Source: a virus (taxonomy: Duplodnaviria > Heunggongvirae > Uroviricota > Caudoviricetes). Taken from it: a DNA stretch of 4,902 nt. Below are positions 2,999 through 3,607 of the stretch, piece by piece; within the stretch, counting starts at the first letter, position 1, and each line of letters begins with the position of its first letter. The notes beneath the pieces are model-generated. The model saw only the letters and a list, made by a program, of their open reading frames with translations, made no database searches and had not been told where the DNA came from. Location: the IMG/VR virus record IMGVR_UViG_3300029102_000236; one strand, written 5' to 3'. Position numbers and translations under genes: made by a program.

Positions 2999-3607
2999 TC
3001 ACTCTCTTTTTCCCTGAAGCATGGCAGCGTGGCAGGCATCCTCTACGCCCTTAACTGCATCTGCGCAGTAGTTATAGCGATTGCATTCCACTAACTTCTG
3101 CCTGAGATTTTCAATTGCTTGCGCGACATCAGCCTGTATTACAGGAACTGGCGGAACGGCTGTCTGCTGCTCTCGAACGTCATTAGTCGCTATCGGTTCT
3201 GCTGCCAACTGACTGGCATATTTGTTAATGGTAACGATAAGCTCTTGCTCAGCCTCATCCAGACAATCACCGATACCTCGCCTGTCGCCGTCAAAATCAT
3301 CGAAATCAGCATGAACTCTGGCAAATTTCAGGATTGCGGACAACACCTCACCAGGAATTACCGGAGAGTTGGTTGACGTTTCCGAAATTTCCCGAAAATT
3401 ATTGGTTGACGAATTCGCGTTTTCCCGAAAGTTTCCGGCATGAAGCATAGCCGCGCGGCAGGCGTTCCAGCCTCTCACCTCTGCAATAGCGGCAACAGCA
3501 TCGACCGCGTACATGCTAAGAGGGTTAGGCATTGGTTTTTCTTCAGGTACTACTGGCACTGGCTTGGCATATATAGCGGCTGAACATACCAACCCTTTGA
3601 TAACCAA
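2999..3607 (-). CDS. Modular accessory protein with PV(I/V)P linkers and an internal 11-aa tandem repeat; maximal ORF 202 codons, possibly the frameshifted continuation of ORF 3550-3804
   Basis: Frame is open from TTG 3607 to TGA 3001-2999. The first ATG is at 3532-3530 with only a weak RBS. Conserved linker motifs KPVPVVPEE (residues 15-23, upstream of the first ATG), NSPVIPGE (80-87) and VPPVPVIQ (151-158) indicate the frame is genuinely coding from its 5' end. Overlaps the upstream ORF by 58 nt in the -1 frame. Confidence 0.6.
   Translation of the reverse strand: MVIKGLVCSAAIYAKPVPVVPEEKPMPNPLSMYAVDAVAAIAEVRGWNACRAAMLHAGNFRENANSSTNNFREISETSTNSPVIPGEVLSAILKFARVHADFDDFDGDRRGIGDCLDEAEQELIVTINKYASQLAAEPIATNDVREQQTAVPPVPVIQADVAQAIENLRQKLVECNRYNYCADAVKGVEDACHAAMLQGKRE
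3354..3371. repeat. Dispersed 18-mer ggaattaccggagagttg, copy 2 (encodes the NSPVIP linker of the 202-codon ORF)
   Basis: Exact 18/18 match to 2367-2384, in frame, immediately downstream of the 33-bp tandem repeat. Confidence 0.9.
3369..3434. repeat. Imperfect 33-bp tandem duplication (2 units) inside the CDS 2999-3607
   Basis: Unit 1 is 3369-3401 (ttggttgacgtttccgaaatttcccgaaaatta) and unit 2 is 3402-3434 (ttggttgacgaattcgcgttttcccgaaagttt), about 25/33 identical. The first 10 nt and the tttcccgaaa core are identical. It encodes the in-frame peptide repeat NFRENANSSTN / NFREISETSTN. Confidence 0.85.
3541..3556. repeat. Dispersed 16-mer cttcNggtactactgg, copy 1 (encodes PVVPE in the frame of the 202-codon ORF)
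   Basis: 15/16 identical to 3946-3961 in the Ea22-like gene. In the frame of ORF 3550-3804 the same bases read CAG TAG and supply its stop codon. Confidence 0.8.

Follow-up and report, generated by a model that had tools for sequence, protein, structure and literature searches.

A frameshift pseudogene in the mosaic exo-xis region of an icd-adjoining lambdoid prophage of Escherichia coli

Closest described genes and the prophage arm

The closest described counterpart of the two ORFs considered here is a locus annotated in RefSeq as C_RS30805 in Escherichia coli CFT073 and as DR76_RS30530 in ATCC 25922, which PGAP labels "hypothetical protein; frameshifted". The window, i.e. the whole stretch of 4,902 nt that was analysed (IMG/VR record IMGVR_UViG_3300029102_000236), harbours the same locus with 99.9% identity over 951 nt and one SNP at window position 3312. 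The loci do not differ materially; the PGAP model ends at window 3353 and does not include the C-terminal module. The locus is thus flagged as a frameshifted pseudogene in public annotation already.

At the protein level, the locus resembles the genes for the EaA/DUF551 proteins of lambdoid, P22-like and P1/P7-like phages. They share with the broken gene the leader module, the linkers (PVPVVPEE and NSPVIPG/D) and middle modules, and they have the same location, next to an Ead/Ea22-like gene in the interval from exo to xis. However, most EaA/DUF551 proteins comprise approximately 400 aa and end in DUF551 (PF04448), whereas the broken gene and its intact relatives of 259-263 aa end earlier (…MLQGKRE) and have no Pfam domain. 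The ~400-aa DUF551 proteins show 70-86% identity over 97-100% of the repaired protein (the product obtained when the missing base described below is restored), and in the longer homologues PF04448 is located C-terminal to the region shared with the broken gene. Searches in Pfam gave no match for either ORF, neither to PF13935 (Ead_Ea22) nor to PF04448, and in PHROGs only families of unknown function were matched. A single profile, that of PHROG family 60, extends over residues 1-261 of the repaired protein. The broken gene is non-essential and related to EaA/DUF551-type proteins, without having the DUF551 domain itself.

The window contains ten credible genes according to the ORF list and Pfam, every one on the minus strand (Table 1), and this gene set is that of the left early arm (exo-xis to int) of a lambdoid prophage. 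The prophage element adjoins icd in E. coli chromosomes. A TGATATG stop/start junction was found both at 3802-3808, where the Ea22 gene is followed by the broken gene, and at 2995-3001, where the broken gene is followed by the next one; among the other neighbours there are several overlaps of 4-11 nt. The identical junctions and the short overlaps suggest that the genes of the exo-xis arm form a tightly coupled operon.

Table 1. Genes of the window and sequence features of the split gene (window coordinates)
Feature	Position	Strand	Remarks
Integrase	1-1143	minus	
Excisionase	1133-1369	minus	
DUF4222	1509-1748	minus	
ASCH	1774-2058	minus	
DUF550 dATP/dGTP pyrophosphohydrolase	2051-2791	minus	
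Small ORF	2788-2997 or 2788-3039	minus	
Two ORFs under study	3550-3804 and 2999-3607	minus	
Ead/Ea22-like gene	3806-4570	minus	
TraR/DksA-type zinc-finger gene	4567-4788	minus	
Upstream ORF	3550-3804	minus	84 aa; ATG 3804, TAG 3552-3550
Downstream ORF	TTG 3607 to TGA 3001-2999	minus	202 aa
Premature TAG of the upstream frame	3550-3552	minus	product of the frameshift; inside linker-coding sequence
Rest of the gene in the -1 frame	2999-3568	minus	linker AKPVPVVPEE, middle module, 2 x 33-nt repeat, linker NSPVIPG, C-terminal module
Single-base deletion	3568-3569	minus	A of intact relatives absent: CTATATAT^GCCAAG
Short alternating run, site of the deletion	3569-3576	minus	CTATATAT (CTATATATA in relatives)
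Mosaic patch	3474-3554	minus	81 nt (54 nt in HVH109); only stretch of the gene differing from the HVH109 orthologue, apart from the SNP at 3312 and the A
Linker-coding repeat (…KPVPVVPEE…)	3541-3564	minus	second copy at 3946-3969 in the Ea22 gene
Two tandem 33-nt units	3369-3433	minus	code for NFRENANSSTN and NFREISETSTN; 78% identical

One missing A between the two reading frames

As described in a first-pass annotation of this DNA, the two ORFs overlap by 58 nt (3550-3607), and the downstream ORF is in the -1 frame relative to the upstream one. Judged from the comparisons presented below, they are very probably the two halves of one accessory gene of the exo-xis (ea) region, which was broken by the loss of one A. 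The locus is a split gene (lineage-specific frameshift pseudogene) within the mosaic exo-xis region of the icd-adjoining prophage. A mutational frameshift or a recently split gene had been called at least as likely as programmed frameshifting, and this reading is supported by the intact gene of strain HVH109 and by the PGAP label.

The upstream ORF is the N-terminal fragment. It contains the leader module (MSTFTDKELIKEIKER…ALASLEENPVAW) and a module ending with …SKGWYVQPLY, which is followed by the six-residue out-of-frame tail MPSQCQ and the premature stop codon. Its ATG is part of the TGATATG sequence in which the Ea22 gene ends and is preceded by an own Shine-Dalgarno (SD) sequence (GGAG, -6.4 kcal/mol); the program-made ORF list begins this ORF at TTG 3825 instead. 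The C-terminal module of the downstream part ends with …MLQGKRE*.

When positions 3720-3480 were used as query in a sensitive DNA search, a stretch of 178 nt at the start of the query was matched by 179 nt in many E. coli genes, which implies a one-base indel. All intact relatives read CTATATAT-A-GCCAAGCC, and the window lacks this A between 3569 and 3568. Alignment to four relatives revealed a single gap (CTATATATAGCCAAGCC in the relatives versus CTATATAT-GCCAAGCC in the window), and four separate alignments placed one missing A at 3569/3568. The conserved protein is encoded in the upstream frame through …GWYVQPLY (to 3569) and in the downstream frame from AKPVPVVP (from 3568). The proposal that the downstream frame is the meaningful one across the overlap is therefore correct from 3568 onward (AKPVPVVPEE), but not for 3607-3569, where it is the upstream frame that is conserved (SKGWYVQPLY). 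The single indel explains the frame change, and its reversal restores the full gene: re-insertion of the A results in one ORF of 268 aa. The relatives used for the alignment are uninterrupted ORFs; one of them, WP_000206746.1 (269 aa), reads …SKGWYVQPLYIAKPVPVVPDARPS….

Two other processes were considered and rejected. Phase variation at the (TA) run is not supported, since the run has only 3.5-4 units, the change is a single base and not a repeat unit, and no length variation was found among the 60 listed of 90 carrier genomes. As regards transcriptional slippage, no homopolymer is located upstream of the TAG, and the A5 run at 3539-3535 falls after the stop.

The repaired protein matched 7,971 database proteins at E ≤ 0.001, and most of the best 120 of these matches span 99-100% of it as one polypeptide. 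The best match (P0001) is G770_01276, a protein of 259 aa from E. coli HVH 109 (L007). Its gene is uninterrupted and has the same position in the same icd-integrated prophage, where the order is TraR, Ea22, this gene, an 83-aa ORF, DUF550 (246 aa), a 94-aa ASCH ORF, DUF4222, xis, int (380 aa) and icd. The N-terminal and C-terminal modules are the same, and so is the DNA on either side of the junction. At the DNA level, HVH109 is identical to the window at 3815-3569, has the extra A at the junction, which makes it one ORF, and is identical again at 3568-3555; at 3473-2990 the two sequences are identical save the SNP at 3312. Thus an intact single-ORF orthologue exists at the same locus. The comparison of orthologous loci, which the first-pass annotation had named as a check, revealed homologues fused in frame and an overlap that is not conserved. 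Homologues present as two independent genes had been named there as evidence against a recoding site; the homologues indeed lack the conserved overlap, but as genes fused in frame and not as independent genes.

Between the two identical stretches lies the mosaic patch, which reads EEKPMPNPLSMYAVDAVAAIAEVR in the window and DARPTLNNGIVGFDE in HVH109; with 81 versus 54 nt, the difference in length is in frame. The patch of the window matches genes of the L006, L009 and L012 types instead. Since the deletion is only 14 nt away from the first patch-specific base, we considered the possibility that it is a by-product of the patch recombination. This idea was abandoned: the plasmid NZ_CP159120 (L012) has the junction combination of the window but retains the A and an unbroken frame at this point (…QPLYIAKPVPVVPEEKPMPNPLS…, …QPLYIAKPVPVVPEEKPMPNPLSMYAVDAVAAIAEVRGWNACRAAML), so that the recombination at the junction and the loss of the A can be separated. 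It is the deletion alone that breaks the gene.

The homologue on this plasmid (L012 1297-2033) has a different frameshift further downstream, where the frame stops after …AAMLKGDKS, and it is also labelled "frameshifted" by PGAP. Members of this gene family seem to have been inactivated repeatedly.

Over 2950-3900, the window shares 99.9% identity with CFT073, ABU 83972, ATCC 25922 and some 85 further complete genomes. All of the 60 listed of approximately 90 complete E. coli genomes with full coverage carry the deletion, as do three phage records, namely ev017 (two entries) and PhiR57_1. Being common to these genomes and records, it is a real indel and no read error. In Escherichia phage PhiR57_1 (PV340572.1), the stretch 2990-3815 lies at identical coordinates, with position 3312 as the sole difference. 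A literature search for the PhiR57 phage series yielded nothing. Position 3312 is also the only difference from CFT073, HVH109 and L009 in the stretches compared with each; the coding strand has A in the window versus G in the others, which replaces Arg by His in the downstream and possibly untranslated half of the split gene.

In the PhiR57_1 record two CDS are listed, 3550-3804 ("Ea22") and 2999-3514 ("EaA"). Further, PHROG 14306 is a 177-aa family matching the downstream half over its entire length and possibly derived from it. Both the two CDS of PhiR57_1 and the 177-aa PHROG family are better treated as fragments of one gene, and here lies the value of our observations for annotation.

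Expression of the halves and the heptamer A_AAG_GGT

Which proteins are made from the split gene we infer from its sequence. Ribosomes starting at ATG 3804 would read the native sequence to …QPLY and then continue out of frame for six residues (MPSQCQ) until TAG 3552-3550. This would yield the 84-aa N-terminal fragment, for which the truncated C-terminus GWYVQPLYMPSQCQ is predicted. The remaining 190 codons would be translated at most at a low level, by re-initiation at ATG 3532 or by error frameshifting. No SD was found at the downstream starts (TTG 3607, +0.7 kcal/mol; ATG 3532, -1.0 kcal/mol; ATG 3514, +2.1 kcal/mol), and the downstream fragment thus has no initiation signals of its own; for comparison, the SD duplexes of the remaining genes of the window have energies between -3.3 and -12.0 kcal/mol, most being -5 or stronger. 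Within the downstream 190 codons, neither additional stops nor additional indels are present. This would also fit continued use, but recency explains it equally well because only one SNP separates the window from CFT073, and we attribute the intact state of these codons to a recent mutation.

A rather unlikely alternative is that the split is tolerated, with an 84-aa leader from ATG 3804 and a 177-aa product arising by termination-reinitiation at ATG 3532. In this view both products would work, and the modules would be autonomous units with flexible, proline-rich linkers between them. The break is located exactly at an inter-module linker and the stop at 3552-3550 only 17 nt before ATG 3532, so some re-initiation and residual function of the halves would be possible. 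In addition, the family is an extreme mosaic with modules in many combinations, 177-aa forms are annotated in databases, and the split form is carried by ev017 and PhiR57_1, which were deposited as complete phage genomes. However, from the presence of the split form in deposited phage genomes one can conclude at most that the gene is dispensable. None of the downstream starts has an SD, and no diverged lineage keeps the split: the database entries of split type (proteins of 202 and 177 aa, and PHROG 14306) share 94-99% identity with the window and therefore look like the same mutation.

Considerably less probable still is that the frameshift is leaky enough to matter, so that a few percent of near-native protein would be made and the gene would be down-tuned rather than dead. 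In E. coli, an aggregate error frameshifting of 1-10% past single-base deletions was reported (Springstein et al. 2024, PMC10861913). One route might be non-programmed -1 slippage anywhere in 3607-3553. As a second route, one may speculate that tRNA-Tyr hops by +2 between two overlapping UAU codons, from 3573-3571 to 3571-3569. The product of such a hop would read …QPLY-AKPVPVVP…, i.e. the native sequence minus one Ile, and would give rise to the peptide GWYVQPLYAKPVPVVPEEK.

The first-pass annotation had put forward a candidate -1 frameshift site at A_AAG_GGT, where a slip would join the two ORFs into a 268-aa fusion, and had based this on features that we could verify. Taken as a programmed site, it would serve the normal expression of the two ORFs. 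The heptamer AAAGGGT is present at 3598-3592 (minus strand) within the overlap, in the X_XXY_YYZ register of the upstream frame, the downstream ORF is in the -1 frame, and translation with a slip at this site indeed results in 268 aa. For such a slip the junction peptide …SWLSKGLVCSAAIYAKPVPVVPEEK (GLVCSAAIYAKPVPVVPEEK) is predicted. Moreover, according to a study in which all motifs were measured in E. coli, Lys AAG is a shift-prone codon in this species (Sharma et al. 2014, PMC4066793). This formal pattern of an X_XXY_YYZ heptamer in an overlap with a -1-frame ORF is, however, the only likeness to the sites of dnaX, the IS3/IS911 transposases and the phage tail-assembly chaperone genes G/GT. 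In contrast to them, the locus has no stimulatory hairpin, pseudoknot or spaced SD, its overlap is not conserved, the A-site codon is GGU, and the junction defined by homology lies off the heptamer.

The absence of stimulators, which had been noted before, was corroborated. The only SD-like sequence, GAGGAG, is located at 3631-3626, 27 nt upstream of the heptamer and not at 10-14 nt. The 92 nt on the 3' side of the heptamer (3591-3500) fold with a minimum free energy of -17.4 kcal/mol, compared to -17.5 ± 2.9 kcal/mol for shuffled sequences (z = 0.04); a fold of equal or greater stability was obtained for 107 of 200 shuffles. In the above-mentioned study, unstimulated motifs stayed close to background: tetramers without stimulators reached approximately 0.15% versus a background of 0.11%, and heptamers without stimulators exceeded a background of 0.055% at most about 10-fold. 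There, GGN and mixed purine/pyrimidine ZZN codons in the A site, for example GGU, are described as less frameshift-prone (PMC4066793). Judged by this codon class, the heptamer does not belong to the efficient ones with cognate re-pairing in the A site, such as X_XXA_AAG.

The comparison to homologues also speaks against recoding. The frame of the conserved protein switches approximately 24 nt downstream (3') of the heptamer, and the slip product would not be collinear with the homologous proteins: LVCSAAIY would replace WYVQPLYI, i.e. GLVCSAAIY would stand where the gene type sharing this module has GWYVQPLYI, and eight conserved residues would be scrambled. The homologues examined are single ORFs, that at the same locus included, and in none of them are the overlap and the heptamer conserved together. 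The heptamer is equally present in intact genes, for example in frame in the HVH109 orthologue, where it codes for Ser-Lys-Gly, and the relatives differ in it, most having GGC and L005 having AATGGGC. Six in-frame X_XXY_YYZ heptamers were counted in the 1583 codons of the ten ORFs of the window, corresponding to approximately 0.07 expected heptamers in the 19 codons of the overlap; its occurrence there is uncommon, but not remarkable. With the frame change elsewhere, homologues as single ORFs and no stimulators, programmed frameshifting is extremely improbable and on present evidence effectively refuted. In a gene split by the loss of one A, which is the explanation we prefer, the heptamer would be ordinary coding sequence for Ser-Lys-Gly without a role in recoding. 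More generally, an in-frame X_XXY_YYZ motif in an ORF overlap is weak evidence for recoding unless the overlap is conserved in homologues.

Least probable of all, and practically dismissed, is a sequencing or assembly error in an intact gene: errors of this kind, indels of one base in short repeats, are common, but the site is a (TA)3-4 run and not a homopolymer, and the deletion is shared by genomes from many laboratories, including several assemblies of CFT073 and ATCC 25922 as well as ABU 83972.

Linkers, module exchange and decay of the prophage

The linker-coding repeat, which had been noticed earlier, has indeed a copy with 83% identity within the Ea22 gene (Table 1). At this repeat the homology switches between gene types, matches stopping or starting at query positions 159-178. 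Proline-rich linker sequences (PVPVVPEE, SPVVPEG, NSPVIPG/D) recur in three neighbouring genes, at 3541-3564, 3946-3969, 3349-3371 and 2362-2384, and coincide with the start or stop points of homology to other phage genes. Based on these sequence comparisons, it looks like modules are shuffled by recombination at the linkers, the 81-nt patch at 3554-3474 probably being one such exchange relative to HVH109. The two tandem 33-nt units are conserved in all homologues that were aligned.

The biological weight of the split gene is small: it is one more decaying accessory gene in a prophage of E. coli (CFT073, ABU 83972, ATCC 25922 and relatives). In the CFT073 and ATCC 25922 hosts the prophage is decaying at several places. 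In CFT073 (L001 1-3095, the counterpart of window 3806-4570) ISEc10 of the IS21 family interrupts the adjacent Ead/Ea22-like gene, and the excisionase gene is truncated by an IS3-family element; unlike in CFT073, both genes are intact in the window. In ATCC 25922, ISEc52 is located further upstream.

Annotations also differ for the genes that follow the broken gene. In the window, uninterrupted ORFs are located at 2051-2791 (246 aa; leader module and DUF550) and at 2788-3039 (83 aa). In CFT073 and ATCC 25922, PGAP gives a 69-aa gene starting at window 2997, the leader as a pseudo-fragment and a shorter DUF550 protein, while in the PhiR57_1 record 2051-2791 is annotated at full length, together with 2788-2997.
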